From assembly GCA_043813585.1 (NCBI GenBank), contig JBDRKW010000006.1:149741-213740 (forward strand): 64,000 nt of DNA, in the 5' to 3' direction. Each line of letters starts with the position of its first letter. The stretch's first letter is position 1. A model generated the notes under the pieces. It had not been told where the DNA came from, did no database searches, and saw only the letters and a list, made by a program, of their open reading frames with translations. This document shows, piece by piece, positions 4,720 to 64,000 of the stretch. Position numbers and translations under genes: made by a program. The DNA is from Candidatus Kerfeldbacteria bacterium. Lineage in GTDB: Bacteria; Patescibacteriota; Patescibacteriia; UBA9570; XYC2-FULL-38-9.

Positions 4720-4727
4720 AGTTGCGC

Positions 4728-47639: not shown

Positions 47640-47692
47640 GGGAAAAAGAATGTTGCATGTTCGGCTGTGTAATGTGTTACAATTGGTCGACT

Positions 47693-49897
47693 ATGCCAAA
47701 GAAAAAAGCCACAAAAAAGGCGAAACCAAAAAAATCTACCCCCAAAAAAAACACTGGACGTGTATCTAAGGGTGATTTGATATTGAAGGAGCTGAACGAA
47801 ATGCAGCGCGAGGCAGCCGAGGCCACAGAAGGCCCGGTGTTGGTGCTTGCCGGAGCCGGTTCGGGCAAAACGCGCACCCTGATCCACCGCACCGCCTACC
47901 TTATTGCAGAAAAAGGGGTGAAACCATGGACTATCCTCGCCGTTACCTTCACTAACAAAGCAGCGCAGAACATGAAGGAACGTATGTCCGCATTACTTGG
48001 CGACATGAAGCATACTCCCGTCATGGGCACGTTCCATTCCATCTGTGCCCGCCTGCTCCGCAAAGAGATCCCCGCGCTCGGTTTTGAACGCAATTTCGTG
48101 ATCTACGGTGATGACGACCAGAAAGGCCTGGTCAAGAAAATCATGAAAGAGATGGGATACGACACCAAGCAGATCCCCGCCAACTCTGTCCACTGGAAAA
48201 TCAGCAGCGCGAAAAACCTGCTTATCGGCCCGGAAGAGTTTGAACAACTCGTGGATGACCCTATCAGCGAAGTCGCGGCAAAGGTGTATCCCAAATACCA
48301 GGAAGAGCTGCACAAGGCCAACGCGCTGGATTTTGACGATTTAATAATGAAGACGGTCGAATTGTTCCAGCAATTCCCTGAAATCCTCGCCAAATACCAA
48401 AAGATGTGGAAGTACATTTTGGTGGACGAGTACCAGGACACGAACAAGGCGCAATACACGCTCGTCTCGCTGTTGGCAGACGACAACAAGAACATCTGTG
48501 TTGTGGGCGACGACTTTCAATCCATTTACAGCTGGCGCATGGCGGACATCCGAAACATCCTCGACTTTGAAAAGGACTACCCGGATGCGACCGTCGTCCT
48601 GCTCGAGCAGAACTACCGCTCCACCCAGACCATCCTGGACGCATCGAACGCAGTGATCGCCAAAAACAAGAACCAGAAAAAGAAAGTGCTCTGGACGGAA
48701 AATGACCTCGGCGAAAAAATAATCGTTAATGAAGTGGAGGACCAGGAAGCCGAAGGCCGGTTCATCGTGGAACAAATCATCAACATCGAAACCGGCGACG
48801 GGAAGGTAGCAGGCAGCAGCACGCCGGAACTGAAATACGAAAACGACGAATACGCGCAGCCCGACCCGGCCGACCAAGAAAACATGCAGCCGATCCAGGA
48901 GGGTGAAAGCATCCTGGAACGCGTGATGCGCTCCAAGATGTTCGAACAGAACCGCGAGGCGCAGGATTTACAGCAGAAAGTGGATGCCAACAAGAAAGCA
49001 ATCGACTTCTCGCGCTATGTGGTGCTCTACCGCACGAACGCGCAGTCCCGCGCAATTGAAGAAGCATTCCTCAAATACAACATCCCGTACAAAATCATCG
49101 GCGGCATCCGGTTTTACGAACGCATGGAGATCAAAGACGCCATCGCCTACCTTCGCGTCATGTTCAACCCGGCCGACTGGGTGGCGCTCGAACGCATCTC
49201 CAACACGCCGGCACGCGGCATCGGCGACCGCACCTGGATAAAAATCGAACAATTCGCCGCACAACGCGGATTCAACATAGTAGAAGCGGCAGGACAGGCC
49301 ATTCCCGACATCCAAAACGCGCGCTTGTCGGCGTTCTACCAGTTTGCAGAGATCATCAAGACCGTGCGCGACAAAATGGAAGAGCTGAACCCCACGGAGA
49401 TCCTGGATATGGTCCTCAAAGAGATCGGCTACAAGGAACACCTGTTCAACACCACGGAGACAAAGGAAAAAGCAGAGGCAAAATGGGAAAATGTGCAGGA
49501 GTTGAAGAATGTCACGCAGAAATTCGCGAACTTGCGCGGGGCAGAAGGGCTGGAAGCGTTCCTGGAAGAAGTCTCGCTCGTCATGGACCAGGACAACGTG
49601 GACGAATCAGAAAACGTCGTGAAGCTCATGACCGTGCATGCGGCCAAAGGGCTGGAATTTCCGGTAGTGTTCGTGGTTGGCATGGAAGAAGGGCTGTTCC
49701 CCCACTCGCGATCGCTCATTGACCCGAAAGAAATGGAAGAAGAACGCCGGCTGTGCTACGTGGCGCTCACCCGCGCGATCGAACGGGTATACCTGGTGCT
49801 CGCCAGCCAGCGTATGCGCTGGGGAAACGTGCAGGTAAACCCGCCGTCGCGCTTTATCGACGATATTCCGGACGAATTGATGATCTGGCTGCAATAG
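47693..49897 (+). CDS. pcrA: ATP-dependent DNA helicase PcrA/UvrD
   Basis: SF1 motifs (AGAGSGKT Walker A, DEYQDTN, C-terminal VALTRA). A basic N-terminal tail MPKKKATKKAKPKKS. TTGCAT..TACAAT promoter with the -10 9 nt before the ATG. Confidence 0.9.
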   Translation: MPKKKATKKAKPKKSTPKKNTGRVSKGDLILKELNEMQREAAEATEGPVLVLAGAGSGKTRTLIHRTAYLIAEKGVKPWTILAVTFTNKAAQNMKERMSALLGDMKHTPVMGTFHSICARLLRKEIPALGFERNFVIYGDDDQKGLVKKIMKEMGYDTKQIPANSVHWKISSAKNLLIGPEEFEQLVDDPISEVAAKVYPKYQEELHKANALDFDDLIMKTVELFQQFPEILAKYQKMWKYILVDEYQDTNKAQYTLVSLLADDNKNICVVGDDFQSIYSWRMADIRNILDFEKDYPDATVVLLEQNYRSTQTILDASNAVIAKNKNQKKKVLWTENDLGEKIIVNEVEDQEAEGRFIVEQIINIETGDGKVAGSSTPELKYENDEYAQPDPADQENMQPIQEGESILERVMRSKMFEQNREAQDLQQKVDANKKAIDFSRYVVLYRTNAQSRAIEEAFLKYNIPYKIIGGIRFYERMEIKDAIAYLRVMFNPADWVALERISNTPARGIGDRTWIKIEQFAAQRGFNIVEAAGQAIPDIQNARLSAFYQFAEIIKTVRDKMEELNPTEILDMVLKEIGYKEHLFNTTETKEKAEAKWENVQELKNVTQKFANLRGAEGLEAFLEEVSLVMDQDNVDESENVVKLMTVHAAKGLEFPVVFVVGMEEGLFPHSRSLIDPKEMEEERRLCYVALTRAIERVYLVLASQRMRWGNVQVNPPSRFIDDIPDELMIWLQ

Positions 49898-49950: not shown

Positions 49951-50080
49951 ACTTCTCTGCCTGATGCGGTAAGAAGGGTAGGTAAACCGGGCAGGAATAT
50001 GGCGGGTTTCGGGCTAATAGAGGCCCGGGGCTCAAACGATCATAGTGATCCGATTCCTGTTTGGTGCACGAGGAGAAATC

Positions 50081-51403
50081 ATGCCTAGTGGCGAAGAGGA
50101 CGCTCTGTCCAGACTTGTGACTGCTGCCGTCGACCCGTGGAAACGGACCGACAAGCACCACCTGAACCAGGGGTTGCTGGCGCTTGAAGGCAAGCACACC
50201 GACCTGCTGCCGAATGAACAGTTCAGGTGCCGGATTCCGGTGTCCGAAGGCGAGATCAAGACTGCGGTGTCCGAAGACGGCGCGGTCACAGTTGGTGGTT
50301 TGGACGATTCTGGCATGCACCAGCTGTTCGTGGCTGCGCCCGACAGCACTCGGTTCACGCCGGTGCTGAAACAGCCGGTCGGCGAGATCCGTGCGGTCTG
50401 CTTCCCAAGCGGCAGCAACCGACCGGCGTGCGTTGCCGGCGACGACTTCGACTCCTGGAGGGTCATCTGGGACGACTGGGAAGCGGTCTTCTCCGTGCCG
50501 GTCCGGACGTACCTGAACCCGTTCGCAACGCAGCAATGCTGGCTCACCTGCTGGATGGAAGACGGCCAAAAAAACGCATTCATCATGACGTACGGCATGT
50601 CCGAGATGCTGACGAAGAAACCTGATGGAACTGTCCGAATCACACACTACCCGAAAGGGGGCGCACGAGTCATCGGCGTATTCGACGGCAGTGCAGTTGT
50701 CATGCCGGACCGACGGCTGAACAAACCCATCACATACGGGGATTTCACACTCCCCAAGACGAGCGACTTCAACCGCCACCACGTCCAGGCGCATCCGGAG
50801 GGCGGCATCATCATGGTGGGCTTCGACCTCGACAGCACCACATCACCGTCCAACTTCATCGCCACCTCATTCAACAGGTCGATCAGGTACGTGGAGCAAG
50901 GAGGATTGTTCCTGGTCAACGGCGAAGTGTACAGCAACCATCTGACGGGGAATGATCCGCACAACCGGCAGAACACGGTGGTCTCGCTCGATGGCAGCTG
51001 GCAGACGAAGTCGTCAATCGCCGGAATCGCTGTACAGGGGTTCAGATACGGCGACGGTTCGCTTGCGGTCACCACGGGCCGGCTAGAGTCGCAGGTGTTG
51101 TGTCTCTTCGATCGGGACGGAAACAGTACGTTCGAGTACCGGATCGGAAGCGGGCACTTCACGCCCGACGGCCGCCTTCTCTTCCCGGGTGGATGGTACT
51201 ACCCGCAGACCTTCGCCGGCATGGAAGAGTCGATGCGGCGCACTCTCACCATAATGCCCATTCGCCTCGGGCAACGCTCACTCCACCAGATGACGCTCAT
51301 CAACGAAAACGAGCTTATGGGCATTCATCCGGTGGGCAACGGCCAGCTTGCGGTTCACCGCTGGCTGCCGATGGACCCGGACGTCGACCTGACGGTCGAG
51401 TAA
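50081..51403 (+). CDS. GC-rich hypothetical protein (440 aa), β-rich
   Basis: About 62% GC. SD GAGGAG 5 nt upstream of the ATG. No recognisable motifs. Confidence 0.5.
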   Translation: MPSGEEDALSRLVTAAVDPWKRTDKHHLNQGLLALEGKHTDLLPNEQFRCRIPVSEGEIKTAVSEDGAVTVGGLDDSGMHQLFVAAPDSTRFTPVLKQPVGEIRAVCFPSGSNRPACVAGDDFDSWRVIWDDWEAVFSVPVRTYLNPFATQQCWLTCWMEDGQKNAFIMTYGMSEMLTKKPDGTVRITHYPKGGARVIGVFDGSAVVMPDRRLNKPITYGDFTLPKTSDFNRHHVQAHPEGGIIMVGFDLDSTTSPSNFIATSFNRSIRYVEQGGLFLVNGEVYSNHLTGNDPHNRQNTVVSLDGSWQTKSSIAGIAVQGFRYGDGSLAVTTGRLESQVLCLFDRDGNSTFEYRIGSGHFTPDGRLLFPGGWYYPQTFAGMEESMRRTLTIMPIRLGQRSLHQMTLINENELMGIHPVGNGQLAVHRWLPMDPDVDLTVE

Positions 51404-51540
51404 CGTCCACACCGAACTACGGTTCGGTCCTTTTTTTACGCGGGCTTGCACGGTTCCGGGAAATCGGTTATACTATTGCCCAGTGCACGACACTTCGTCT
51501 CACCCTTTTTTAAAAAATCCATAATATATTTTGAGGAGTA

Positions 51541-51968
51541 TGGCAGCCAAAAAAAAACCTACGAAAAAAAAGCCGGCAGCGAAAAAATCCGTAAAGAAAG
51601 CAACAACGGCAAAGAAGAAACCGGCTGCAAGGAAAAAAGCTCCTACGAAAAAGAAAGCGACAAAACGCGGGTCCTCTGCCCCGAAAAAACCAACTGTCCT
51701 GAAAAGCGAAATCCTGGAAACCATCGACAGCTTTACTGACGTGGAAACGCCGCAGATGGAAACCACGCCGGAAACACCGCAGGCAACAGAAAAAGTATTT
51801 ACCTTCACGCACGTTGGCGAATTCTTTCTGGCGATCGTCATGCTCTCGCTCGTTTTCCTGACCGCCCTGTACTGGATCATCAGCGTCAGCCAGCCGGCCC
51901 TGTTTTCACAGATCGACAGCCGCGGAGGCATCTGCTCCATCCAGGAGACGCTTGCGCTCAAGCAATAG
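51541..51968 (+). CDS. Histone-H1-like basic (AKK/KKP-repeat) N-terminal domain fused to a single TM helix
   Basis: MAAKKKPTKKKPAAKKSVKKATTAKKKPAARKKAPTKKKATKR followed by FFLAIVMLSLVFLTALYWIISV. An intrinsic terminator follows. Confidence 0.5.
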
Positions 51969-51990
51969 GACAAACACACGCCAAACACAA

Positions 51991-52013
51991 ACGCCCCATG
52001 ACGGGGCGTTTTA
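51991..52013 (+). terminator. Rho-independent terminator
   Basis: ACGCCCCatgacGGGGCGTTTT. Confidence 0.6.
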
Positions 52014-52041
52014 TAATTCTGCGTTGTTGAAAAAAGAAGCA

Positions 52042-52728
52042 TCATCTGCGCAGCCTTCTCTTGATGTCATCCAGTTGGATGACATGAGCTGACGCCGATG
52101 ATGCCGGCATCGTTGTTTTTCCCGTGGTTCCTCCCATGGCGTAGACGAGCGCATGCTCGTCCTTCTCGTCCTCCTTGTCGTCGTCGCCGTCCGGGTTCAC
52201 GTCCGAAACCGCGTAGTAGGTGTCGCGGTCGATCTGGACCATGAAGGTTCCTGTCTCGTCGTAGACGAGGGTGCGGTCGGGGGTTCGCGGCGATGCGATG
52301 GTGCGGTCAGAGGTCTGCATGAGGATGCGCCGCTGGGTGCGCCACCTGTTGTAGTTGTCCAGCGCCGCCTGGAACCCGGGCGCGGAGCGCGTCGACGGGA
52401 ACCTTGGGGCGTCCTCGGTCCAGTTGACGTCGGCGTAGAACGGGATCAGCGTCTCGCTGTAGAGCAGGACATCGGCGCTGCCGTTGCCGTTGTCCCTGAC
52501 CTGCAGACGAAATCCCGACTTGGTGCCCAGCGTGAACTGGACGTCGTTGTCCAGTATGAACTTCCCGGCCGGGAAGCTCCTGTACGAGAACGTGATGCGA
52601 ACCCATGCGTAGAGCAGCCGGATCTGGAGCAGTTCCAGCTTCTCGATCATGGGTAGTGGCCGCACCCGCCGCAAAGCAGGTGTGTTCGTTGCCCGCACTC
52701 GGGTCAACGGCTTTTTCCAGCGGTCCAT
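52042..52728 (-). CDS. GC-rich hypothetical protein (about 228 aa)
   Basis: About 62% GC. The likely start is the second Met (MDRWKK), which has GGAGGT 5 nt upstream. An acidic DGDDDKEDEKDE stretch and an RRLRR tail. Confidence 0.45.
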   Translation of the reverse strand: MDRWKKPLTRVRATNTPALRRVRPLPMIEKLELLQIRLLYAWVRITFSYRSFPAGKFILDNDVQFTLGTKSGFRLQVRDNGNGSADVLLYSETLIPFYADVNWTEDAPRFPSTRSAPGFQAALDNYNRWRTQRRILMQTSDRTIASPRTPDRTLVYDETGTFMVQIDRDTYYAVSDVNPDGDDDKEDEKDEHALVYAMGGTTGKTTMPASSASAHVIQLDDIKRRLRR

Positions 52729-52947
52729 TCTGACCTCCATAGCGTTCCCTGACGGAACACTTTGGTTGGGATTGTCGATGTCCGTTGCCCAAGGCGGATT
52801 ATAAGAGTATATCCGCCCGCCCCCTCCCGGGGGCCACGTGCTGTGTGGGACTAGTCACCCTACAACATAAATTCGCCATTTGTCAAGCCATAACTGTTAA
52901 TACCGAAAATGCAGGTCACGCCCGTATATCTGCCCATATTCCAGGCA

Positions 52948-52976
52948 TTGACAAAACGCGTTGACTGACCTATAAT
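52948..52976 (+). promoter_or_regulatory. Perfect-consensus sigma70 promoter TTGACA-17-TATAAT
   Basis: TTGACA at 52948-52953, a 17-nt spacer and TATAAT at 52971-52976. It is about 45 nt upstream of the 659-aa acidic protein gene. Confidence 0.6.
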
Positions 52977-53019
52977 AACGCGTTAAAATAAGCATGTATT
53001 AGCCAAATAAATACTTTTT

Positions 53020-54999
53020 ATGCCAGAACCCAAAGGAATCCCAATTGGTCCCGCAAAGGCCGAAGCACGCCCAACGCCAGTACCGGTCAAACCGGGTGAA
53101 AGAGAAGTGCCTCCGATTACCCGCGAGGACCTGAAAGTTGTCCGGGGAGATGGCGGCGGGGAGATGGCGGCAGAACCGCAGGGCGATGACGCCTATGATC
53201 CCGCAAAAATGGAGCGGTATTATCCGGAAGATCTGTTGAATGTACTTGGCGCGAAGATCGAAGCGGCAACCGGCCAAAAAGTAAATCTGAAATACCAGGA
53301 ATTTACCCTGCAGGAAGCGGGCGGCAAACCGGGTGAAGCAAAAGCGGTTCGCAAAAACGGGGAACAGTATGCAAGCGAACTGATGCAGGCCATGACAAAA
53401 TCCGATAACAAACAGCTGGACGACTTCTACCTGTCGCGCTTTGAACCGGCGACCGACCAGGCGCTGGCGGCCAAACAGCCCCTCACTGAACAGCAGCTGG
53501 CGGCCGCAGTCGTGGCAGAAGCCGCGCGCATGGTTCATGACAACCCAAAAATACGCGAGGCGGTACTGGCAGCGCAGTTTGGTTTTACTTCCATTAATGA
53601 AATTTCAAAAGAATCACTGAATAAGAAGATAAACGATCTCTACGACGCGGAACGCGCAAAAGCCGGCGCTATGACCCCGGAGGTTGCGGCAAAGCTGCAA
53701 TCCTTTATGGATTGGCAGGAACGGCTGGAAGGCATGTTGCTTGATGCGCATGAAAAAGCGGAAAAACTTCGCGGCGAGGCGGCAGAATTGGTTGAAGAGA
53801 TAAAACTGCCGGAGCTGGATATTGAACCAATGGCAATGCCGGAGATTCCCAAAGCCGAATTAAAAGCGGAAGACCTGGAAGCAATAACGGAAACGCCGGC
53901 CGAAGCGCGCGGACGCATTGAACAGCTCCGCATAGCGCTGGACGCAGAGCTGGGCGCAACCCGCTTTGAAGAACGCGGCGTCTGGAGCCGTTTGAAAAAT
54001 ATTGCCACTGAACTGAAAGGCGCGCGCGCCAAGCAGGGCAAGCTGCGCGACCAGCTGAAACAGCTGGACCGGTTTAGCGCTGAAATGAACGATAACAACT
54101 ACAAAGAATACATGGCAAAGATGGATGCGATGCAATCCATGATGGCTGAACAGTTTGAAATCAAGACGCTCCCGGAACTGCGCCCCATAGAAGCAGCAAC
54201 AGAAGCGCCTGCTGCAGAACTCCCGCCGGAACAACAGCCGGCCACAGCAGAAGAAGAAAAAGAGCGCATGATGATCTCTGCGGAAATTGCGGATATTATC
54301 GGCATAGACCAGCCGGAGCAGGCGGCGGCGGAAGAGGAATTCTTCTCCACCGGAGCGCGCGAAACCAAGCCGGCGGCTGAAACAGATATGCCGATTGACG
54401 CGAAGGCAGTGGCAAACCTCCAGCAGCTGGAATACGGCGACCTTGAAATGATGCTCAAGCAGGTGGAGGGCCAGATGGGCGCTGAAAAAGGCGATGCGCT
54501 CAAAGCGCTGCAGATGCGCGAATCGGCGATTACCGAAGCAATGCGTACGCATCCGAGCAATGAAGGCGCGCTGAAGGCAGAAGCGGCTGCGGAAGAGGAT
54601 GAAGACATCCCGCCGACCGAACAGGCGCTTGACCTCGGGCAGCAGCCCGTGGAGCGCGTCCCTATGACCAAGCTGAAAGCGGAATACAAAGAATTTGATA
54701 CCAACGATGTGACCATTGAAGAACAGAAGATCCTGCAGGAATTTGATTTGGATACGCAATTCCTCACCGAAAAATCGATGGACGACCCGGAACGAACAAC
54801 AAAGATGCTGGTTGCGATGAAAACGCGCATCAATGAAAAAGCTGCAGAAATGAAAACGGAACTAAAAGCATCCGGCGTGACCGACCAAAAAGAAATTGAC
54901 GAGCAGGTCGGCGCATACACAGAACGGCTGTATGAGATGTATGACCGCATGTACGTGCTGGAACAACTGCCGAGACCGGAACGCATGAAAGACAAATAG
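53020..54999 (+). CDS. Large (659 aa) acidic, E/A/K/Q-rich, predicted coiled-coil protein of unknown function
   Basis: Long uninterrupted ORF driven by a consensus promoter and ending at a strong terminator. No TM or enzymatic motifs. Confidence 0.55.
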   Translation: MPEPKGIPIGPAKAEARPTPVPVKPGEREVPPITREDLKVVRGDGGGEMAAEPQGDDAYDPAKMERYYPEDLLNVLGAKIEAATGQKVNLKYQEFTLQEAGGKPGEAKAVRKNGEQYASELMQAMTKSDNKQLDDFYLSRFEPATDQALAAKQPLTEQQLAAAVVAEAARMVHDNPKIREAVLAAQFGFTSINEISKESLNKKINDLYDAERAKAGAMTPEVAAKLQSFMDWQERLEGMLLDAHEKAEKLRGEAAELVEEIKLPELDIEPMAMPEIPKAELKAEDLEAITETPAEARGRIEQLRIALDAELGATRFEERGVWSRLKNIATELKGARAKQGKLRDQLKQLDRFSAEMNDNNYKEYMAKMDAMQSMMAEQFEIKTLPELRPIEAATEAPAAELPPEQQPATAEEEKERMMISAEIADIIGIDQPEQAAAEEEFFSTGARETKPAAETDMPIDAKAVANLQQLEYGDLEMMLKQVEGQMGAEKGDALKALQMRESAITEAMRTHPSNEGALKAEAAAEEDEDIPPTEQALDLGQQPVERVPMTKLKAEYKEFDTNDVTIEEQKILQEFDLDTQFLTEKSMDDPERTTKMLVAMKTRINEKAAEMKTELKASGVTDQKEIDEQVGAYTERLYEMYDRMYVLEQLPRPERMKDK

Positions 55000-55015: not shown

Positions 55016-55047
55016 CGAAAAAACCGGCATTCCTGCCGGTTTTTTTC
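55016..55047. terminator. Bidirectional rho-independent terminator between the convergent acidic-protein gene and uvrC
   Basis: aaaaaaCCGGCAttccTGCCGGttttttt. Confidence 0.6.
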
Positions 55048-56663
55048 TACACCATCCCTTTGAGGTGGCGTTTGCGGTAAAATCCGATGGCAAAACGGTG
55101 CGCCTCATCGCGCATGCGCTGTACTAAATATAATCCTTCTGAGTTGCGTTTTAATAATACTGATTGCGATTCGCCCGGTATAAATATCTCTTCCTCGCGC
55201 TTGGCAAGGGATATTAACGGGATCTTCAGGCCGGTCGCGTCCAAAATCGCCTTCACAGCATTTAACTGCGGTTTGCCGCCGTCAACAATAATCAGGTCCG
55301 GCCGCGGCCAGGGCTGGGTGCTGCCTTTCACCTTTTTGGGCAGGTGCCGAACGCGGCGCGAAACGATCTCCTGCAGCGACGCTACGTCATTTGCGCCAAC
55401 CACGCCTTTGATCTTGAACTTCCGGTATTCAACCGGCTCCGCAAGCCCATCCTTAAACACCACCATCGACCCGACCGAATACTTTCCCTGGATATTCGAG
55501 ATATCATAAATTTCAATGCGGCCGAGCTTGGCAGCATCCAGCCCGATGGCCGCGGCAAGCTCCGTCAACCCCTTCTTCGCGCGCTCGTCATGCTTTTCAA
55601 ACGACGCCTTCTGCCGCTTCAGCGCCTCCCCGGCATTCTCGATGCCCATCTCCAGCATTTTCTTGTGCCTGCCGCGTCGGGACTCGATGCTCAAATAGAC
55701 ATTCTTCGGAACCGACTCGGTCTGCGCATAATACTGGTCTGCAAACGCCCCCAGCACGTCATCGTCGCTCTGGTCGCGCGTGTGCTTCAGGAAAAACACC
55801 TCCTGGTGGATCATCTTCCCACGCCGCACCACAAACAGATTCACCGCCGCCGTCCCGTCCATGCGCGCCAGCGACAGATAATCGGCATCTTCCTGCCGCG
55901 GCGACACCACCTTCTGCTTCACCATTAACTTATCGATCGAAAGCAGCTGGTCGCGCAGCTGCGCCGCCTTTTCAAACTGCTTCAAATCAGACGCACGAAC
56001 CATCTCCCGCTCTACATACGCGCGCACCGGTTCATAATCCCCGCGCAAGAACTGTTCGATCTGTTTAAACACTGCCCGGTACTCGTCCGCACTGATCACA
56101 TCCGCGCACGGGCCCAAACAACGCCCCATCTGGTAATCCAGACACGGCCGCTTTGGGAACACGACCTTCCCGCGCACTTCCCGCGGCGGCGACGTACAGA
56201 TATGGAACAGCTGCTTCATCAGCCGCATGGCGCGCTTCACCGCAAACCCAGAAATGTACGGGCCAAAATACTTCCCGCTCCGCCCGCGCAGCGGAATCTT
56301 CCGCGTCGTTTCCAGCACCGGGTACTTGTCATCTGTTATATGGATATACTGGAAATTCTTGTCGTCCTTCATCACGATGTTGAACGGCGGCTTGTACTTC
56401 TTGATCAGCGTCGTCTCCAACAACAGCGCCTCCGACTCGTTATCAACCACCGTCACCGCAACATCCGCAACAGAACGAACCATCACGCGCTTGGCATCGG
56501 ACAAATCGGCAGAATCGCGGAAATACGACAGCACGCGTGAACGCAAATTCGTCGCCTTACCTATATATAAGAGATGCTTGTCCACATCCAAAAACTGGTA
56601 CACGCCGGGTTTTGCCGGCAGGGACCGCACCTTTTCCATCAATTTTTTGCGAACGTCAGCCAT
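55047..56663 (-). CDS. uvrC: Excinuclease ABC subunit C
   Basis: GIY-YIG (GVYQFLD..LLYIGKATNLRSR), UvrBC, RNase H-like endonuclease and (HhH)2 domains. Confidence 0.9.
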   Translation of the reverse strand: MADVRKKLMEKVRSLPAKPGVYQFLDVDKHLLYIGKATNLRSRVLSYFRDSADLSDAKRVMVRSVADVAVTVVDNESEALLLETTLIKKYKPPFNIVMKDDKNFQYIHITDDKYPVLETTRKIPLRGRSGKYFGPYISGFAVKRAMRLMKQLFHICTSPPREVRGKVVFPKRPCLDYQMGRCLGPCADVISADEYRAVFKQIEQFLRGDYEPVRAYVEREMVRASDLKQFEKAAQLRDQLLSIDKLMVKQKVVSPRQEDADYLSLARMDGTAAVNLFVVRRGKMIHQEVFFLKHTRDQSDDDVLGAFADQYYAQTESVPKNVYLSIESRRGRHKKMLEMGIENAGEALKRQKASFEKHDERAKKGLTELAAAIGLDAAKLGRIEIYDISNIQGKYSVGSMVVFKDGLAEPVEYRKFKIKGVVGANDVASLQEIVSRRVRHLPKKVKGSTQPWPRPDLIIVDGGKPQLNAVKAILDATGLKIPLISLAKREEEIFIPGESQSVLLKRNSEGLYLVQRMRDEAHRFAIGFYRKRHLKGMV

Positions 56664-56756: not shown

Positions 56757-59597
56757 ATGTCCGATTCCATCAAAATCAAGGGTGCGCGCGTCCATAACCT
56801 CAAGAACATCGATGTCGACATCCCGCGCGACAAATTCGTCGTTATAACGGGCCTTTCCGGCTCGGGCAAGTCCTCGCTCGCATTCGACACGATCTACGCT
56901 GAAGGGCAGCGCCGCTACGTGGAATCATTAAGCTCCTACGCCCGGCAGTTCCTGGGCCTTATGGACAAGCCGGACGTGGACCAGATCGACGGCCTTTCCC
57001 CCGCCATCTCAATAGACCAAAAAACCGCATCACATAACCCGCGTTCTACCGTGGGAACCGTAACGGAGATTTACGATTATCTCCGTTTATTGTTTGCCCG
57101 AATCGGCGTGCCGCACTGCCCGTCCTGCGGCCAGGTGGTCAAGAAGCAGACGATCGACCAGATGATAAAAAAAGTCATGACCATGAAGGACGGCACCAAG
57201 ATCATGGTGATCGCACCGGTTATCCGCGACAAAAAAGGCCACCACCGCCCGGTTTTTGAAGAAGCGCGCAAAGCAGGGTATGTCCGCGTGCGCGTGGACG
57301 GCCTGCTCTACTCTGTTGACGAAGCGGACGAGCTGAACCTGGACAAGCAGAAAAAGCACAACATCGAAATTATCATCGACCGGCTGGAAGTCAAAAAGAG
57401 CATCGACAAGCAGCGCCTGCACGAATCCATCGAAACCGCGCTCGACCTGTCCGACGGCCTGGTTGTCATCCATAATTCCGACGAGGAAAAGGACACGCTG
57501 CTCTCGGAAAAGCTGGCCTGCAACGACTGCGGCATCAACCTGGAAGAGATAGAACCGCGCAACTTTTCGTTCAACTCGCCGCACGGGGCATGCCCGCGCT
57601 GTACCGGCCTGGGCACCAAGCTGGAGGTGGACCCGAATTTAATTATTCCAAACAGGAAGCTGTCCATTGCAGAAGGTGCTGTCCGTCCCTGGTCGCGCAC
57701 CAGTTCCAACCAGACCTGGATGATGCGCATCCTGGAAGCGGCCGCGCACTCACACGGCTTCTCCACCACCGAACCGGTAAAATCCCTGTCCCAGGACGAA
57801 CTCAACATCGTTCTCTACGGCACCGGGGACGAAGAATACGACGTGAATGCCAGCGAAAACTACTCCGGCAAAGTCCAGCAGTTTATGGCCACGTACGAAG
57901 GCGTCATCCCGAACCTGGAACGCCGCTACCGCGAAACAGAGTCCGAATATATCCGCACGGAAATCGAGCGCTACATGCGCGTATTCGACTGCCCGACCTG
58001 CGAAGGAAAACGCCTGAAGCCGGCCGCGCTCGCCGTGACCGTGAATGACCACAATATCTCGCAGGTGACGTCGTTTACCATTGAACAGGCAGAACAATTC
58101 TTCAAGGAACTCAAACTCACCAAAAAGGAAGAAACCATCGCGCGCCAGATTCTCAAAGAAACCCAGGCGCGGCTCGCGTTCCTGGAAAACGTCGGCCTCA
58201 CTTACCTCACGCTGGACCGCACGGCATCCACCCTGTCCGGCGGCGAAGCCCAGCGCATCCGCCTGGCCACGCAGATCGGTTCCTCGCTGGTGGGAGTGCT
58301 GTATATCCTGGACGAACCGTCCATCGGCCTGCACCAGCGCGACAACGGCCGCCTGATTGAAACGCTCAAACAGCTCCGCGACCTGAAAAACACTGTGATC
58401 GTGGTGGAGCATGATGAAGAAACCATCCTGGCGGCAGACCATGTCATCGACATCGGCCCGGGCGCAGGCAAGCACGGCGGCGAAATTGTTTCACAGGGAA
58501 CGCCGGACCAAATCAAGAAAGACAAGAGGTCCCTTACGGGCAAATATTTATCGGGCAAGGACTCGATCCCGATGCCGAAAAAACGTCGCAAAGGCAACGG
58601 CAAAAAGCTCACGGTTGTGGAGGCGGAAGAATTCAACCTGCAAAAAGTGACTGTCGATATCCCGCTGGGCACATTTGTCTGCATCACCGGCGTATCCGGC
58701 TCGGGCAAGTCCACGCTCATGACGGAAATCCTCGCGACCGCGCTCAAGCAACACTTCTACAACGCCAAAGACCTGCCTGGCAAGTATAAGGAGATTAAAG
58801 GCATCGAATACATCGACAAAGTCATTGATATTGACCAGTCGCCGATCGGCCGCACCCCGCGGTCCAACCCGGCAACCTACACCGGCGTCTTCACGCATAT
58901 CCGCGACCTGTATACCCAGGTGCCGGAAGCCAAGATGCGCGGATACAAAGCCGGCCGGTTCTCGTTCAACGTCAAAGGCGGCCGCTGCGAGGCGTGCCAG
59001 GGCGACGGCGTCATCAAGATCGAAATGCACTTCCTGCCGGACGTCTACGTCGAATGCGACGAATGCCACGGCCAGCGCTACAACAAGCAGGCGCTTGAGA
59101 TCCACTACCGCACCAAGACCATCGCGGACGTTTTAGGCATGACCGTAAATGAAGCGTATGAATTCTTCGAAAATATCCCGAACATCCGCAAGAAGCTTGA
59201 AACACTCCGTGATGTCGGCCTCGGCTACATCCGCCTGGGGCAGAACGCAACCACCCTGTCCGGCGGCGAAGCGCAGCGCGTGAAACTCGCAACCGAACTG
59301 TCGCGGCGCGCAACAGGCAAAACATTGTATATTCTGGACGAACCGACCACCGGCCTCCACTTTGACGACGTGAAGCGGCTCCTCAACGTGCTGCAGCAGC
59401 TCGCAGACATGGGCAACACCGTCATGGTCATCGAACACAACCTGGACGTGATCAAATCCGCAGACCACATTATCGACCTCGGCCCGGAAGGCGGCGACAA
59501 AGGCGGCCTGGTAGTTGCCGAAGGCACCCCGGAAGAGGTGGCGAAGGTCAAAGAGAGCTACACCGGCCAGTACCTCAAAGAATCGCTCAAAAAATAA
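56757..59597 (+). CDS. uvrA: Excinuclease ABC subunit A
   Basis: Two ABC ATPase modules ([10 protein letters not shown] / [18 protein letters not shown] x2) and zinc-finger CxxC motifs. TATAAC lies 8 nt upstream of the ATG. Confidence 0.95.
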
Positions 59598-60626
59598 TTA
59601 CGCCACTGCGGTCCTTTCCGCTTCCTCGAACCGTCGTTTAATTTGATCGGGTATGACGGCGATCGCCAGACGATCATCAGGCTTGGCACCGCGAACCTTC
59701 CGCACCTCGTTTATCAGCGCCTGCGAAGGGTTGTCGCCCGCTTCCAATGCGGCAATGACGGTCCGCACAATATAGTCGTCCGGCAGAACGTCGCGGATGC
59801 CGTCACTGCAGCCCAAAACAATATCTTTGCGCAAATCAATCTTGCGGCTAGTCACATGCGGTTCCAACTTGCCTTCTATCCCCAGGCTCTTCGGAAGCAC
59901 GCTTAAAAATACATTCCCACGGTTACCCTCCAGCTCTTTTAACGCCTCTTCGCGCGTGCACTCTTTCGAAGCCATCACATGTTTGAGGCGCAACTCCACC
60001 GCTTCTACGCCTGCAGCAGCCAGCGCTTGTAATATGCCAGGCGTCAGCACTGTGTCTTTTTTCAGCCTCCCGCCCGGCACCTCAACGCCTGCAGCTGTCA
60101 GCGCCGCATCCACCTCCTGCTGCGGATCATCATTCACCGTAAACTGTTCAATCGTCCGTTCTTCGATGTTAATAACAAATCCCGGGCTGTCGCCGATACT
60201 TGCGCTCGTCACCCGACCCTCGTTCTCCGACAGCTTTTCAAACAATGTCACGTTCATCGTGGTCTTTCCGCCCTCCCCGTTGCGCTTCACCGCTTCATTC
60301 ATATCCGCCGTAACGTTGCGCAGATACTTTCCCCGCTTGTCCGGGTCACCGAATAACTTCGCAGCATTTTCCTGCGCAGCGGCGGCCGCAGCGCGCGATG
60401 CCTTCACGCCAGAACCTTCAGGTCCGCCCTTGGAAGCGCCGTCGTATATGCCTATCACAAATCCTTCGCCTTCGGGGGCTTTAATCAGCTGACCGGTATC
60501 CTCGTTGCGCGTCGGATGGTCCGGGCTCGCTTTGGTCGCATAACTGATCGTAAAACCGGGCTCGGTGCGTTCGCGCGCCTCCTGCGCCTGTTTTTTCGGC
60601 CGAAATTCAATGGAAGTTGTTGCCAT
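59598..60626 (-). CDS. PP2C-family Ser/Thr protein phosphatase-like protein
   Basis: IGIYDGASKGG (DGxGG-like), LGCSDGIRDVL and the terminal DDRLAIAVI resemble PP2C/SpoIIE motifs. Moderate confidence. Confidence 0.5.
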   Translation of the reverse strand: MATTSIEFRPKKQAQEARERTEPGFTISYATKASPDHPTRNEDTGQLIKAPEGEGFVIGIYDGASKGGPEGSGVKASRAAAAAAQENAAKLFGDPDKRGKYLRNVTADMNEAVKRNGEGGKTTMNVTLFEKLSENEGRVTSASIGDSPGFVINIEERTIEQFTVNDDPQQEVDAALTAAGVEVPGGRLKKDTVLTPGILQALAAAGVEAVELRLKHVMASKECTREEALKELEGNRGNVFLSVLPKSLGIEGKLEPHVTSRKIDLRKDIVLGCSDGIRDVLPDDYIVRTVIAALEAGDNPSQALINEVRKVRGAKPDDRLAIAVIPDQIKRRFEEAERTAVA

Positions 60627-60727
60627 ACATTATACGTTTATTGCTCACGCTTGTACTATATATGATGTGGGGAAGAACGCAAAAAAACGGCCTCGTGAGC
60701 CGCTTTATGATTGATATAACACAAAGC

Positions 60728-62071
60728 TTACGATTGCGCCTTCCCGCGGTGCCGCACAAAACCAAACGTTCCGAGCCCCAGCCCGAACGCGACAATCATC
60801 GTCAGCAAAGAAAATTCCGGAACAGCCCCCGCTTCAGGCCCGTTCTCATCAGCACCTTGGTCATAATTTGTGCCCACAGGCATAGGACGCGTTTGCCCAT
60901 CAATATCTAAGCCGCTAAACGTAGCAGGGAGCGAAGTTGTTCCCTCCTCTTCAGCCGGCGAACCTGTCAGGATGTGATATGTCCCATCTAATAAAGGATC
61001 TGCATCTTGAGAAGCCGCATCATCGCCAGAAGCTGATTGCCAATCACCGAGTGAAGTTGCCGGCGTACCATCCCAACTACCCACGTCTGCCGAACCCCCG
61101 GAGCTATAAATCAAATTATTATCAGAGTCCCATCCTGTTGCTGAAGCGAAGATATATAGACCAATACCTCCACTGGGTGGTTGAATGATGTTATTGCGAA
61201 GATAGGTGTTCTCACAACCGAATAACTCAATTTCTGAGCCTTCAGAGTCATCACCATCTGCAACAGTATTATGAACTAACTCTAATCCATCAGATAGAGA
61301 TCCAGAAATTTGTGCAGCGCCCGCACCAATGTCCGTCGAATTGTTATACAAAATATTATTGTGAACCACTGTATCAACAACATACCATGTAGAGCGCCCA
61401 GAAGTACCGATTATATAAATGCCGGAATAACCATTTGAATAAATGTAGTTTCGGCGTACTTCATTGTCTGCAATCATTCCCCCTAATGCGTAGATTTCAA
61501 CACCATTCGTTCCATTGCTGTAAATACTGTTATTTCGAATGATATTGCTGCTCGAATCCATAACCTGCACACCATCTTCCGTTGCATTACGTATTACGTT
61601 GTACTGAAGAATATTGCCAGATCCGCCGCTAATAACGACGTTATGCAAATCAACCCCCTGAAATATAAAATTTTCAAATGTTACGCCGGTTCTGCTGCTT
61701 AAGTTAATCCCATAATCCCCTCCTGTATTTTGGATAATCGGCGATCCTACCCAGTCGGTCCATGTAGTATTATCATGACTAAATGAATCCAATACCAACG
61801 TTTGAAGCGATGCTCCGTTTACATCGCACGTTCCTCGAACATACACTGTTTCTCCTGCCGCTACCTGACTAGCTGCATATTGAAGCGTCGAACATTCGCT
61901 TCCTACGGTACAACCACCCGAATCATTACCAGGGACATCACAATCTACATATCGGTCAGCAGCAAATGCAGCACTAGGCAAAACTACGAAAAAAGCTGCC
62001 AATAAAGCAGCAGTTATTGCAAATGTTCTAATCCGAACAGCACCACGTAGTTGTGACCGTTTTTCTGGCAC
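60728..62071 (-). CDS. Secreted right-handed parallel β-helix (PbH1 repeat) protein with a PEP-CTERM-like C-terminal sorting signal (…VPEFS + TM + RHRGK)
   Basis: Signal peptide and repeated N.I..N/GxxG β-helix rungs. The C-terminus AVPEFSLLTMIVAFGLGLGTFGFVRHRGKAQS has the tripartite exosortase/archaeosortase-signal architecture. Confidence 0.5.
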   Translation of the reverse strand: MPEKRSQLRGAVRIRTFAITAALLAAFFVVLPSAAFAADRYVDCDVPGNDSGGCTVGSECSTLQYAASQVAAGETVYVRGTCDVNGASLQTLVLDSFSHDNTTWTDWVGSPIIQNTGGDYGINLSSRTGVTFENFIFQGVDLHNVVISGGSGNILQYNVIRNATEDGVQVMDSSSNIIRNNSIYSNGTNGVEIYALGGMIADNEVRRNYIYSNGYSGIYIIGTSGRSTWYVVDTVVHNNILYNNSTDIGAGAAQISGSLSDGLELVHNTVADGDDSEGSEIELFGCENTYLRNNIIQPPSGGIGLYIFASATGWDSDNNLIYSSGGSADVGSWDGTPATSLGDWQSASGDDAASQDADPLLDGTYHILTGSPAEEEGTTSLPATFSGLDIDGQTRPMPVGTNYDQGADENGPEAGAVPEFSLLTMIVAFGLGLGTFGFVRHRGKAQS

Positions 62072-62233
62072 CTTTTTTTGTTTTAAGAAGATAAAGGCAG
62101 AATTGCCCCTATCTAAAGATAGTATAACACAATTTCATTATTAATGCAAGCCTTCTTTCATTGACACCCCTCTGCCCTATTGATACCCTCACTTTCCAAG
62201 GGATCGCATGAAAAATGCGAGAAAGGGGGAAAA

Positions 62234-62566
62234 ATGACCAGGGAATTCACTGTCAACATGGAGGATCAGAACTCCATCGGTCACGCATTCGTGGTAATGC
62301 TGATTCACCGCTATCTGCGGTACCCGGAACAACTCCGGGTGCAGATCCAGCGGATCGACGACAAGAATGTCGTGGTGCACATCCGCGCGCACCCGGTCGA
62401 CAAGGCCATGCTGGATGAATGGAAGCGCACCAACAGCAGCCAGCTGATTGCGCTCAGCACCATGCTGGCCCTGCACGCGCACCAGAACGTACTCCCGATC
62501 TACAGCATTCGGGATCACAACAGCCCGCTGCCGGGCGACACTGCATCGCGGAAGAGTATCGCGTAA
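62234..62566 (+). CDS. GC-rich small hypothetical protein (111 aa)
   Basis: SD GAAAGGGGG 4 nt upstream of the ATG. About 62% GC. A terminator-like hairpin and T-run follow at 62567-62615. Confidence 0.45.
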   Translation: MTREFTVNMEDQNSIGHAFVVMLIHRYLRYPEQLRVQIQRIDDKNVVVHIRAHPVDKAMLDEWKRTNSSQLIALSTMLALHAHQNVLPIYSIRDHNSPLPGDTASRKSIA

Positions 62567-62641
62567 CTGCCTGACGCTTCGGAGGGAAGCGATTCAGGCT
62601 CCTTTTTTTTATTTGTTGTTTTACCGCACGCAATCTATACT

Positions 62642-63559
62642 ATGGAGCGTATGGCAACACCGGCAACAACACTCCAGGAAGCGGCATACCGCACGATCGT
62701 CTATTTCGACATGTTCGACTTTGCGCCGACGCTGTTGGAGATAGAAAAATGGATGCTCCACCACGGCCAGGGTCCGTCGTCTTTAAGCTTTCTTAAAAAA
62801 ACAATCGAAAGCGACGAACGGATCAGCCACAAAGACGGATTCTACTTCCTCCGGGGGGACGAGGAACTCACCCGCGCCCGCCTGAAGCGCTACGACTATA
62901 CCGACGAAAAATGGAAACACGCCCGGCCGTACATAAAACTGCTTGCCATGATGCCGCATGTGCGCGCCATCTGGCTTGCGAACGCCATGGGCTGGGGCAA
63001 TGCGCGCGAAAACAGCGACATCGACCTTTTTATTGTTACAACGCCCGGCAAAATATGGTCGGCGCGGTTTTTTACCACAGCGCTGCTGAAACTCCTCCGC
63101 CAGAGACCATTCGAGACCGAGGACCGCAAGGCGATCTGCCTCTCCATGTACGCGGCGGAAAACGCGCTTAACATGGAGCCGTATAAAATCGCGGAGAACG
63201 ACATACACTTTTCCTTCTGGGCCGCGCAGTTCTACCCGGTCTACGATAGCGGCAGTTATTTAATGTATAAGGACTCCAACCGCTGGCTGAACGACGTATT
63301 TGAACACCTCTACTGGACTGAACCGGCCCGGAGACGGATGGTCCGACTGCCGATCGCCATGCGCATCATCAAAGGACTGCTTTCGCTTTTTGCATTAGAG
63401 CGCCTGTTAAAAATGGTCCAGCTCGCCATCATGCCGCTCACGCTCAAAGATATGGCAAACAAGGACAACCGCGTGGTGACGAACGACCAGATACTCAAAC
63501 TCCATACCAACGACAAACGCGCCGAACAGCAGCGCATATACGAACAACGAATTGCGTAA
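62642..63559 (+). CDS. Nucleotidyltransferase-fold (Pol β superfamily) protein
   Basis: GWGNARENSDIDLFIVT matches the G[SG]x9-13D[IV]D minimal NTase active-site signature. TATACT immediately precedes the start. Confidence 0.5.
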   Translation: MERMATPATTLQEAAYRTIVYFDMFDFAPTLLEIEKWMLHHGQGPSSLSFLKKTIESDERISHKDGFYFLRGDEELTRARLKRYDYTDEKWKHARPYIKLLAMMPHVRAIWLANAMGWGNARENSDIDLFIVTTPGKIWSARFFTTALLKLLRQRPFETEDRKAICLSMYAAENALNMEPYKIAENDIHFSFWAAQFYPVYDSGSYLMYKDSNRWLNDVFEHLYWTEPARRRMVRLPIAMRIIKGLLSLFALERLLKMVQLAIMPLTLKDMANKDNRVVTNDQILKLHTNDKRAEQQRIYEQRIA

Positions 63560-63594
63560 AAAAAGAGGATGGAACCGGAGTTCCATCCATGCAG

Positions 63595-64000
63595 TCAGAG
63601 CGTTACATCGCACTGGCCGCCGTCGTTCTGTCCCCAACAGGTGACAGCGTTGTTGATATCCACCGCGCAGGTGTAGTACCAACCGGCAGAAACCTGGAGG
63701 TATTGGCCCGGAGGTACGGCGGTCTGGCCGTAGATGTTCATACCCCAGCACTCGATGCTTCCATCGAACCGGAGGCCGCACATGTGGTACATGCCGGCGC
63801 TCACGTGGACAAACTCCCCTGCCGGAGCATTGAGTTCGCCGTAGTTGTTGGAGCCCCAACAGATGACCGTGTTGTCCTGGCGTTGTGCGCAGGTGTGCAT
63901 CGCACCGGCCGTCATCTCTTTGACGTTCGAAAGGCCCCACGGAACCGACAACTGATTGAAGTTGTTCTGGCCCCAGCAGGTAACCGTGCCGTTGGTGCGC
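63595..64000 (-). CDS. RCC1-repeat (β-propeller) protein; only the C-terminal part lies in the window
   Basis: Repeated CWG.N.YGQ / ICWGSNNYGELN / ECWGMNIYGQT blades. The ORF continues past 64000. Confidence 0.6.
   Translation of the reverse strand, partial: RTNGTVTCWGQNNFNQLSVPWGLSNVKEMTAGAMHTCAQRQDNTVICWGSNNYGELNAPAGEFVHVSAGMYHMCGLRFDGSIECWGMNIYGQTAVPPGQYLQVSAGWYYTCAVDINNAVTCWGQNDGGQCDVTL

Follow-up and report, generated by a model that had tools for sequence, protein, structure and literature searches.

A CPR-specific family of winged-helix, nucleotidyltransferase-fold proteins usually encoded next to an O-antigen-ligase-like gene

Several described groups of enzymes come close to the protein studied here. 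The CD-NTases of CBASS belong to the same Pol-β superfamily of nucleotidyltransferases (NTases) and are of similar length, and the aminoglycoside/lincosamide O-nucleotidyltransferases ANT(4')/KNTase, AAD(9)/AadA and LinB are likewise counted among the closest known systems. MNT antitoxins (MntA) form pairs with HEPN proteins, HEPN domains having an all-α fold. In pneumococcal teichoic-acid synthesis, NTase-fold phosphotransferases of the LicD type are found alongside a Wzy-type polymerase.

The gene that we compare with these systems lies near the end of a 64-kb window (the whole stretch of DNA analysed) of the chromosome of Candidatus Kerfeldbacteria (Patescibacteria/CPR), where it is preceded by a small gene; both ORFs are genuine. 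A first-pass annotation of the window had considered the NTase to be either a cGAS/DncV-like CD-NTase or the MNT partner of a HEPN/MNT pair. Our analysis supports neither the cGAS-like nor the toxin–antitoxin reading of this locus. The NTase gene belongs to a large, uncharacterised, chromosomal family that is specific to CPR and, because it is almost always located just upstream of an O-antigen-ligase-like gene, it most likely encodes a cell-surface housekeeping enzyme.

The previously annotated 305-aa ORF is present (Table 1); NCBI places its start at ATG 62651, which yields a product of 302 aa (P0001). Its AF2 model is of high confidence (pLDDT 95.6, pTM 0.92) and includes a long linker helix that joins the winged helix to the NTase core. 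In the winged helix, the conserved positions F22, F25, T30 and E33 are of the aromatic/acidic type. The C-terminal domain, for which no counterpart was found among the PDB matches, contains a block with the invariant residues V278, K286, H288, D291 and R293.

Table 1. Features of the small gene, the NTase-fold gene and their downstream flank (coordinates within the window).
Feature	Coordinates	Strand	Basis
Shine-Dalgarno-like AAGGGGG	62223..62229	+	Direct sequence reading; 4-nt spacer to ATG of small gene
Small lineage-specific gene, 110 aa + stop	62234..62566	+	ORF; ATG 62234
Intrinsic terminator of small gene	62569..62610	+	RNA fold dG -19.1 kcal/mol, z -2.4
NTase-fold gene, 305 aa, wHTH + NTase-fold	62642..63559	+	ORF; orthologue of CPR-wide family
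N-terminal winged-helix domain, residues about 10-72	62669..62857	+	Family-conserved motif YFDxFDF(A/P)PTxxEI
Pol-β-type NTase core, residues about 103-203	62948..63250	+	Invariant D126, D128, R142, D187
C-terminal family-specific domain, residues about 204-305	63251..63556	+	Invariant RVVxNDxxLKxHxNDxR block
9-bp GC-rich hairpin between convergent NTase and RCC1 genes	63567..63588	-	Terminator scan; fold dG -14.6 kcal/mol, z -4.2
RCC1-repeat gene, 3' part	63595..64000	-	RCC1_2 E 1.5e-26; extends past window end

Assignment of the protein to the Pol-β superfamily was corroborated by its αβαβαβ core with a [DE]x[DE] motif on the second strand and by an intact DxD (codons 63017–63019 for D126 and 63023–63025 for D128). 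The sequence signature G[SG]x9-13D[IV]D, which the first-pass annotation had reported as matched, is actually not satisfied by the motif GWGNARENSDIDLF, where W comes after G117 and N after G119; the part of that claim which stands is the D126-x-D128 pair, invariant across all 43 family members of our alignment A1, the window protein included. An hG[GS] motif located 9–13 residues ahead of the DxD is likewise absent, the window protein having GWGN instead. The signature as a whole is satisfied by only two of the 43 members, the window protein being one of the 41 that fail it, and the G[SG] region is marked by a near-invariant N120. Strand β3 (residues 165–172), the canonical site of the third carboxylate, carries the conserved residues C166-L167-S168. 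The closest acidic residue that is invariant, D187, lies where the following helix begins; judged by its conservation, it is our guess for a putative third metal ligand.

A CBASS-type CD-NTase with an effector gene beyond the window end would be compatible with the size of about 300 aa and with the Pol-β-type DxD, but this interpretation is effectively refuted. The only PADLOC match in this direction (PDC-S09, E 0.034) is meaningless, and none of the 43 family members matched a SMODS- or DncV-type Pfam model. Structural comparisons of the model, which covered PDB and BFVD, gave no cGAS/DncV-type structure among the matches listed, and the bilobed structure of cGAS/OAS-like proteins was not found. 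Neither a CBASS effector of the phospholipase, TM, endonuclease, TIR or SAVED type nor a Cap2/Cap3 gene is a neighbour: downstream there is an RCC1-repeat gene in the window, and Wzy_C followed by groESL in 26 of 28 relatives. In agreement with the earlier remark that no effector is visible before the RCC1 gene, we found no Wzy_C, effector-like or PADLOC-positive gene adjoining the pair. The neighbours are uvrD, uvrC, uvrA and genes for a PP2C-like phosphatase, a β-helix surface protein and the RCC1-repeat protein, none of which is a defence gene, and uvrD, uvrC and uvrA upstream of the NTase-fold gene represent a housekeeping setting. Matches of the UvrD helicase to the GajB/DRT models of PADLOC were dismissed as a sign of defence, since the protein is a full-length UvrD/PcrA encoded in DNA-repair surroundings, about 5 kb upstream of uvrC-uvrA. 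The first-pass annotation had itself named a housekeeping-type relative and the lack of defence-type neighbours as speaking against a defence function, and this is essentially what we observed, although of the relatives that it had proposed, CCA-adding enzymes and LicD, neither was found as a match of the window protein.

The small gene had been described as a GC-rich 111-aa gene with a strong Shine-Dalgarno sequence and its own terminator. It is a genuine gene of 111 codons, that is, 110 aa plus stop, and its ATG lies within a longer ORF that starts with TTG (62180–62566, 128 aa). Both the Shine-Dalgarno sequence and the terminator were confirmed; the latter, located directly after the stop codon, consists of a 12-bp stem with a bulge (62569–62599), a 5-nt loop and a U8 tract, and because of the bulge it was missed by a simple scanner. 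The GC content is above the window mean but only mildly so: GC and GC3 are 0.583 and 0.81, compared with 0.532 ± 0.049 and 0.625 ± 0.10 for window genes, eight of which exceed the small gene in GC. The values for the three codon positions (0.59/0.34/0.81) follow a pattern like that of uvrA which is typical for genes of this genome. A GC-rich foreign island was therefore rejected, the GC content being within about 1 SD of that of window genes.

Searches of 5.8 billion protein clusters with the small protein, both as single sequence and as a two-sequence profile, returned only the protein itself, and there was no match in Pfam, NCBIfam, PADLOC or PHROG. Its only known homologue (102 aa, 27% identical, gap-free) is encoded in the closest relative in a syntenic position, directly upstream of the NTase orthologue; thus, among more than 40 loci with NTase homologues the small gene accompanies the NTase gene in one other locus. 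The small protein is a fast-evolving, lineage-restricted orphan whose functional tie to the NTase is not demonstrable. These properties bear on the idea of a HEPN/MNT module with the 110-aa protein as toxin and the NTase as MNT antitoxin. In the PDB sequence-profile search with the NTase family MNT proteins were indeed the only matches; however, they were not significant (E 0.3), and MNT proteins comprise about 100–150 aa (PDB chain lengths) as opposed to 305 aa in three domains. Moreover, the small protein contains neither an Rx4-6H motif nor a match to a HEPN family, and its single-sequence AF2 model (pLDDT 53), although uninformative, has a low-confidence shape of the mixed α/β type. Given in addition the strong terminator that separates the two genes and the single other locus in which they occur together, the HEPN/MNT interpretation is effectively refuted as well.

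The NTase family comprises 6,465 cluster representatives (50% identity) at E ≤ 1e-3 and 3,070 at E ≤ 1e-30. A word-index search yielded 191 matches; all those with a named organism are from Patescibacteria, and the others are labelled only 'bacterium'. Candidatus Kerfeldbacteria has an annotated protein that is 100% identical, and a 50% identical relative from Kerfeldbacteria was recovered in a scan of genome contigs. Pairwise identity of the window protein with the 42 other members of alignment A1 ranges from 32 to 73% over about 95% of the length. It matches the A1 HMM with E 2.5e-127, a value that is partly circular as A1 includes the window protein, and it carries all family-invariant residues (D126, D128, R142, D187, N213, K286, D291, R293). 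No homologue was detected in phage, plasmid and IMG/VR collections, and neither Pfam nor NCBIfam has a model for the family. Full-text searches of the literature on O-antigen ligases, Wzy proteins or nucleotidyltransferases of CPR, Patescibacteria or Parcubacteria revealed no description of the family or of its linkage to Wzy_C.

This linkage was counted in 28 non-redundant loci of homologues for which 600 bp or more of downstream sequence was available. Wzy_C follows the NTase gene on the same strand in 26, within 300 bp in 24 of them and after inserted genes in the other two. The two genes overlap in 16 of the 24 loci, seven overlaps being of the 4-nt ATGA type, and in most loci groES-groEL comes next after Wzy_C. 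The partner passes the Pfam gathering threshold for Wzy_C (PF04932; O-antigen ligase/polymerase/O-oligosaccharyltransferase) with E 1e-16 to 1e-20, and among NCBIfam models it has weak, sub-threshold matches to the exosortase-associated O-glycosylation ligase and to IctB. A PDB sequence-profile search detected no solved structure for the partner family. As CPR bacteria are without LPS, the acceptor of the Wzy_C partner cannot be lipid A-core. Additional domains and genes recur in this context. A NUDIX domain is fused to the C terminus of the NTase in P0131 and P0144, and Wzy_C is still downstream in P0144 and in P0151, whose C-terminal extension has no match in Pfam. Two loci (L010 and L011) encode a fusion of Wzy_C with radical-SAM/SPASM (rSAM/SPASM), and in L016 a separate rSAM/SPASM gene is located between the NTase gene and Wzy_C. 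The NUDIX fusions and rSAM/SPASM insertions are pointing to nucleotide-diphosphate and sugar chemistry.

Two Kerfeldbacteria loci (L003, L006) show the ancestral order uvrC (minus strand), uvrA (plus strand), NTase, Wzy_C, and in L001 and L002 differing insertions are present at the uvrA-NTase junction. In the window genome this order is broken on both sides. Upstream there are insertions of three lineage-specific genes, which encode the PP2C-like phosphatase, the 110-aa orphan and the β-helix surface protein, the last being of low GC. On the downstream side, the Wzy_C partner on the same strand is missing and its place is filled by the opposite-strand, convergent RCC1 gene; tblastn and HMM searches revealed no Wzy_C, groES or groEL within the window. 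The hairpin between the convergent genes has its T-run on the minus strand and thus is a terminator of the RCC1 gene. Consequently, with the insertions upstream and the convergent RCC1 gene downstream, the NTase gene is left on its own, flanked by two terminators. Nor does it lie beside Wzy_C in L024, in L025 and in relatives using code 25 (TGA as a sense codon), and the NTase protein therefore can be encoded independently of Wzy_C.

The NTase gene may be regarded as the first of a conserved CPR array consisting of the NTase-like gene, Wzy_C, whose product is a polytopic membrane protein, and usually groES-groEL. Based on this array and its often overlapping stop and start codons, we propose a transferase role in the pathway of Wzy_C. 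The protein would be a soluble, Mg2+-dependent nucleotidyl- or phospho-alcohol transferase that acts on the cytoplasmic side in the same surface-glycoconjugate pathway as Wzy_C. It might add a decoration to the lipid-linked precursor, or else produce or use up a nucleotide-linked donor, and Wzy_C would polymerise or ligate the lipid-linked glycan outside the membrane. That the protein is catalytically active, what class of substrate it uses and that it is functionally coupled to Wzy_C are inferences; we consider the chances about even that the NTase acts in the cytoplasm as a nucleotidyl- or phospho-transferase of a pathway for envelope glycans in CPR. More tentatively, it is possible that the winged-helix NTase and Wzy_C, together with rSAM/SPASM and NUDIX in some lineages, constitute an undescribed, Patescibacteria-wide surface-glycoconjugate pathway in which the NTase would modify or activate a glycoconjugate precursor and Wzy_C would attach or polymerise it at the cell surface.

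Gene order in the reduced genomes of CPR can outlast functional coupling, and groESL, which is part of the array, is surely not glycan-specific. The winged helix could also mean nucleic-acid binding instead. If the linkage to Wzy_C were only historical, the NTase might be a small-molecule O-nucleotidyltransferase of the ANT/Lnu type which inactivates or modifies an antibiotic or some other metabolite, such as a product of the hosts of these episymbionts. We hold such a function to be improbable. Frozen gene order would equally have to be invoked for an RNA- or nucleotide-directed NTase such as a tailing enzyme, a CCA-/poly(A)-like polymerase or a second-messenger synthase outside CBASS, with no connection to the envelope. 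However, neither a PolyA_pol/CCA head-domain nor an OAS/cGAS-type match was obtained, no RNA-binding domain was recognised, and both the 4-nt overlaps with Wzy_C and the repeated presence of rSAM and NUDIX partners speak for a specific module, so that this function, too, is hardly probable.

Somewhat less remote, yet still unlikely, is a regulator that contacts DNA or a partner protein through its winged helix and controls how the downstream Wzy_C-groESL genes are expressed or how active they are; variants of this idea are AMPylation or uridylylation of a protein by the NTase core (as by DrrA, GlnE and MntA) and a role as pure ligand sensor. The conserved winged-helix residues are not of the basic recognition-helix type that DNA binding would lead one to expect, NUDIX fusions and rSAM association better suit metabolite chemistry, and the overlapping stop and start codons suggest stoichiometric co-production of NTase and Wzy_C, not a regulator–target logic. 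A transferase of envelope-glycan synthesis remains our preferred interpretation.

For the locus itself our result is deflationary, as no new defence locus of the CBASS-like or HEPN/MNT kind emerges from it. By its thousands of sequence clusters the NTase family is among the more widespread CPR-specific families, and its near-obligate linkage to Wzy_C leads to a concrete hypothesis on the synthesis of envelope or surface glycoconjugates in Patescibacteria, whose cell surfaces mediate the episymbiotic lifestyle and are essentially uncharacterised. If true, the proposed pathway would include a new enzyme activity and offer a handle on how CPR build their host-attachment surface. The high-confidence model and the invariant residues D126, D128, D187, K286, H288, D291 and R293 facilitate biochemical tests.

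In summary, the NTase differs from several of the described systems. Unlike the CD-NTases of CBASS, to which it showed no sequence or structural match at the thresholds used, it is encoded without an effector neighbour and off mobile or defence islands. Compared with MNT antitoxins, for which the match was not significant (E 0.3), the protein is about twice as large, owing to additional winged-helix and C-terminal domains, and it is not encoded bicistronically with a HEPN partner. The LicD/fukutin/FKRP proteins are matched neither at the level of the LicD family model (PF04991) nor by the FKRP-LicD structure, and they resemble the NTase only by functional analogy: here as there, a soluble or peripheral NTase-fold enzyme with a DxD motif is encoded together with a Wzy-family membrane polymerase or ligase for a surface glycopolymer.

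The nucleotidyltransferase-fold protein (NTase) encoded close to the end of the window very likely represents a conserved chromosomal family of CPR bacteria (Patescibacteria) without a role in defence. A hypothetical protein annotated in a Candidatus Kerfeldbacteria MAG matches it with 100% identity, and the identical NCBI protein (P0001) is called from ATG 62651 (302 aa). The start is ambiguous: ATG 62642 has no Shine-Dalgarno sequence, and ATG 62651 is preceded by GGAG (62644-62647) at only 3 nt. A word-index search returned 191 matches, all of about 300 aa and nearly all annotated as hypothetical; those with an organism name were all assigned to Patescibacteria (Kerfeld-, Falkow-, Buchananbacteria, 'Patescibacteria group') or just to a 'bacterium'. 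By exhaustive profile search the family comprises 6,465 representatives of 50%-identity clusters at E<=1e-3, of which 3,070 also pass E<=1e-30. Pfam and NCBIfam hold no curated model for it, and the window protein has no NCBIfam match. Full-text literature searches yielded no description of an architecture combining winged helix, NTase and unique C-terminal domain, nor of a linkage to Wzy_C, an O-antigen ligase/polymerase-like membrane protein (PF04932). The window protein is an ordinary orthologue of this already sequenced, unnamed family, and the defence lead is therefore closed.

The first-pass annotation had proposed either a CD-NTase of the cGAS/DncV type or the MNT of a HEPN/MNT toxin-antitoxin pair. 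We reject both readings and retain the superfamily assignment. The PADLOC CD-NTase models did not match the protein, no cGAS, DncV, CdnE, LicD or FKRP structure was among the matches listed for its model, and neither the window nor the relatives carry an effector gene beside it. Homologues were absent from 50,697 phage records, 72,556 plasmids and IMG/VR. Likeness to MNT is confined to the core and falls short of significance at the sequence level (E 0.3); an MNT is only about half as large as this protein, and the HEPN partner is missing. The sole PADLOC-positive gene within about 15 kb encodes a full-length UvrD/PcrA helicase, which scored E 1e-126 to 1e-107 against DRT 'RTasHel' and Gabija GajB. 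We discarded it as a defence gene: GajA is absent and the neighbourhood is one of DNA repair, with uvrC-uvrA about 5 kb downstream beyond several unannotated genes. Its scores illustrate how the GajB and DRT helicase models pick up housekeeping UvrD. Four consecutive ORFs at 50045-54999 (452, 181, 232 and 659 aa) lack Pfam and PADLOC matches; GC3 is high in two of the four (0.77-0.83).

Membership in the Pol-beta superfamily, as originally assigned, stands. In Pfam the window protein matched Polbeta alone and below threshold (E 0.007); across an alignment of 43 family members Polbeta was found in 25 (best 4e-8) and NTP_transf_2 in 13, and LicD and SMODS/DncV-type models in none. An AF2 model computed from this alignment (pLDDT 95.6, pTM 0.92) comprises an N-terminal winged helix (residues ~10-72), a long helix (75-102), the NTase alpha/beta core (~103-203) and a C-terminal domain that closes with a beta-hairpin and a helix. 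Invariant among the 43 members are D126, D128, R142, D187, N213, V278, K286, D291 and R293; near-invariant residues include N120, C166, L167, E253, Q260 and H288, and the window protein carries all of them. The motif GWGNARENSDIDLF had been said to match the signature G[SG]x9-13D[IV]D. It does not do so literally, as the residue after each glycine is neither S nor G, and only two of the 43 members satisfy the expression; the Asp-x-Asp is invariant. The strand that usually bears the third carboxylate reads C-L-S in this family; the leading candidate to take its place would be D187. No hydrophobic 19-mer exceeds 1.54 (Kyte-Doolittle); the protein is soluble with an intact DxD core.

The best structural matches to the model were ANT(4') (7.2), AAD(9) (7.0), LinB (6.8), DrrA (6.5), Pol X (6.4) and MNT (6.3). 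A Foldseek comparison with PDB entries and with viral models produced no match at E<=1e-3. An ANT-like enzyme acting on small molecules appears improbable to us. A winged-helix regulator or a protein AMPylase is somewhat less remote and still unlikely.

Genomic context was taken from 49 loci (L001-L049) obtained by looking up eight homologues as exact proteins and by scanning metagenome contigs with a degenerate pattern. An HMM built on seven downstream Wzy_C proteins was run against every ORF of every locus. After removal of redundant loci and with at least 600 bp required downstream of the NTase gene, 28 loci remained. In 24 of these Wzy_C (E 1e-16 to 1e-20) follows within 300 bp on the same strand; in two it follows after inserted genes (two small ORFs in L007, a radical-SAM/SPASM gene in L016), and two related contigs (L024, L025) lack it. 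The genes overlap in 16 of the 24 close loci, seven of them by a 4-nt ATGA. The NTase gene is near-obligately paired with the Wzy_C gene, and the two are often translationally coupled. That the enzyme is directed at RNA or nucleotides and the synteny is meaningless seems to us as improbable as an ANT-like function.

In most loci groES-groEL lie downstream of Wzy_C. Past groEL there is often an unannotated ORF of ~153 aa and then a small membrane protein of the MamF_MmsF family (L001, L003, L004, L009, L013, L015 and others). Three variations inform the chemistry: a NUDIX domain fused C-terminally to the wHTH-NTase (homologues P0131 and P0144), a Buchananbacteria Wzy_C protein with a radical-SAM/SPASM enzyme fused at its C-terminus (L010/L011, 5957-8254), and the separate rSAM/SPASM gene of L016 (8931-10019). 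Homologue P0151 has a comparable C-terminal extension without a Pfam match. Wzy_C still lies downstream of P0144 (L049, 4974-6392) and P0151 (L048, 6001-7371); RmuC precedes both. In L040-L045, long ORFs emerge only with TGA taken as a sense codon; the homologue encoded there measures ~245 aa, is without the winged helix and does not have Wzy_C in its vicinity. These loci resemble code 25 of the Gracilibacteria/Absconditabacteria type; in L042 and L044 the gene adjoins a predicted SAM-dependent methyltransferase, as read from N-terminal sequence only.

Window features (window coordinates)
Feature	Position	Strand	Details
UvrD/PcrA helicase	47657-49897	+	
uvrC	55047-56663	-	
uvrA	56757-59597	+	
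PP2C-like phosphatase	59598-60626	-	342 aa; weakly similar to Ser/Thr phosphatases: NCBIfam PP2C/Stp1-type E 1.6e-10, well short of the cutoff; Pfam PP2C E 0.02
Right-handed beta-helix surface protein	60728-62071	-	447 aa; Beta_helix E 5e-15, NosD
Small ORF, longest form	62180-62566	+	TTG start, 128 aa
Small gene, ATG form	62234-62566	+	110 aa plus stop
Small-gene terminator	stem 62569-62599, then U8	+	12-bp interrupted stem, -19.1 kcal/mol, z -2.4 (RNA fold)
NTase gene	62642-63559	+	ORF, 305 aa
Hairpin downstream of NTase	63567-63588	-	9 bp, GC-rich, -14.6 kcal/mol, z -4.2; T-run on minus strand
RCC1-repeat gene		-	convergent with NTase, runs off window; RCC1_2 E 1.5e-26

The ancestral Kerfeldbacteria order is uvrC(-), uvrA(+), NTase(+), Wzy_C(+), intact in L003 and L006. 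The uvrA-NTase junction is a variable slot, empty in these two loci; at 4200-6000 it holds 143- and 405-aa minus-strand genes in L001 and a 203-aa gene plus a Peptidase_M17 gene in L002. In the window (59598-62641) three genes are inserted. The stop codons of the PP2C-like gene and uvrA abut (59597/59598), and a PP2C_2 gene also occurs near the NTase-Wzy_C module in L016. For the beta-helix protein, recent acquisition as a surface protein is probable: its gene is markedly low in GC (0.455, GC3 0.35 versus window means of 0.532 and 0.625), and the protein opens with a hydrophobic signal or anchor and has a C-terminus ('VPEF', hydrophobic stretch, RHRGK) like a PEF/PEP-CTERM-type sorting signal. 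A choice-of-anchor Q match ahead of this tail stays below threshold (E 0.0016). The downstream hairpin terminates the RCC1-repeat gene. Synteny is broken and the window lacks Wzy_C, groES and groEL throughout, which leaves the NTase gene on its own, with a terminator on either side; its usual partner Wzy_C must sit past the end of the window or somewhere else.

The third inserted gene is the small gene, for which a strong Shine-Dalgarno sequence and an own terminator had been correctly noted: AAGGGGG precedes ATG 62234 with a 4-nt spacer, and the stem-U8 follows right after the stop. The terminator, overlooked by a simple terminator scan because of a bulge, argues against an operon with the NTase gene. 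The description as GC-rich holds in part: GC (0.583) and GC3 (0.81) mildly exceed those of window genes (0.532 +/- 0.049 and 0.625 +/- 0.10), but eight genes are richer in GC and the codon-position pattern is like that of uvrA. In the closest relative (L007, L008) a homologue (27% identity, 102 residues, gap-free) is encoded directly upstream of the NTase orthologue (74% identity). Judged from this syntenic homologue, the gene is real; it evolves rapidly and keeps its position within a narrow clade. In a search of 5.8 billion protein clusters the small protein matched only itself, as a single sequence and as a two-sequence profile; four libraries gave no family match, and an Rx4-6H motif was absent. 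Its low-confidence model (pLDDT 53) has beta-alpha-beta-beta-alpha-alpha topology. We see no functional link between it and the NTase.

As the likeliest mechanism, we propose that the NTase takes an NTP or NDP-linked donor and may nucleotidylate, or transfer a phospho-group onto, the hydroxyl of a precursor belonging to a pathway whose lipid-linked glycan Wzy_C would polymerise or ligate outside the membrane. Where fused, the NUDIX domain might have the nucleotide-diphosphate-linked donor or product as its substrate, and the rSAM/SPASM enzyme, where present, could modify the sugar or acceptor. This specific mechanism of an envelope-glycan transferase is tentative, the balance tipping slightly against it; for the broader account, a conserved non-defence CPR family with such a mechanism, we see the balance as even. 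At the family level the NTase-Wzy_C hypothesis is reasonable and merits a bench test, and the window locus itself is of moderate-to-low interest. In pneumococcal teichoic-acid synthesis, LicD-type phosphotransferases of NTase fold cooperate with a Wzy-type polymerase. These phosphotransferases are the nearest functional analogy to the NTase-Wzy_C pair; a test for LicD family membership of the NTase was negative.
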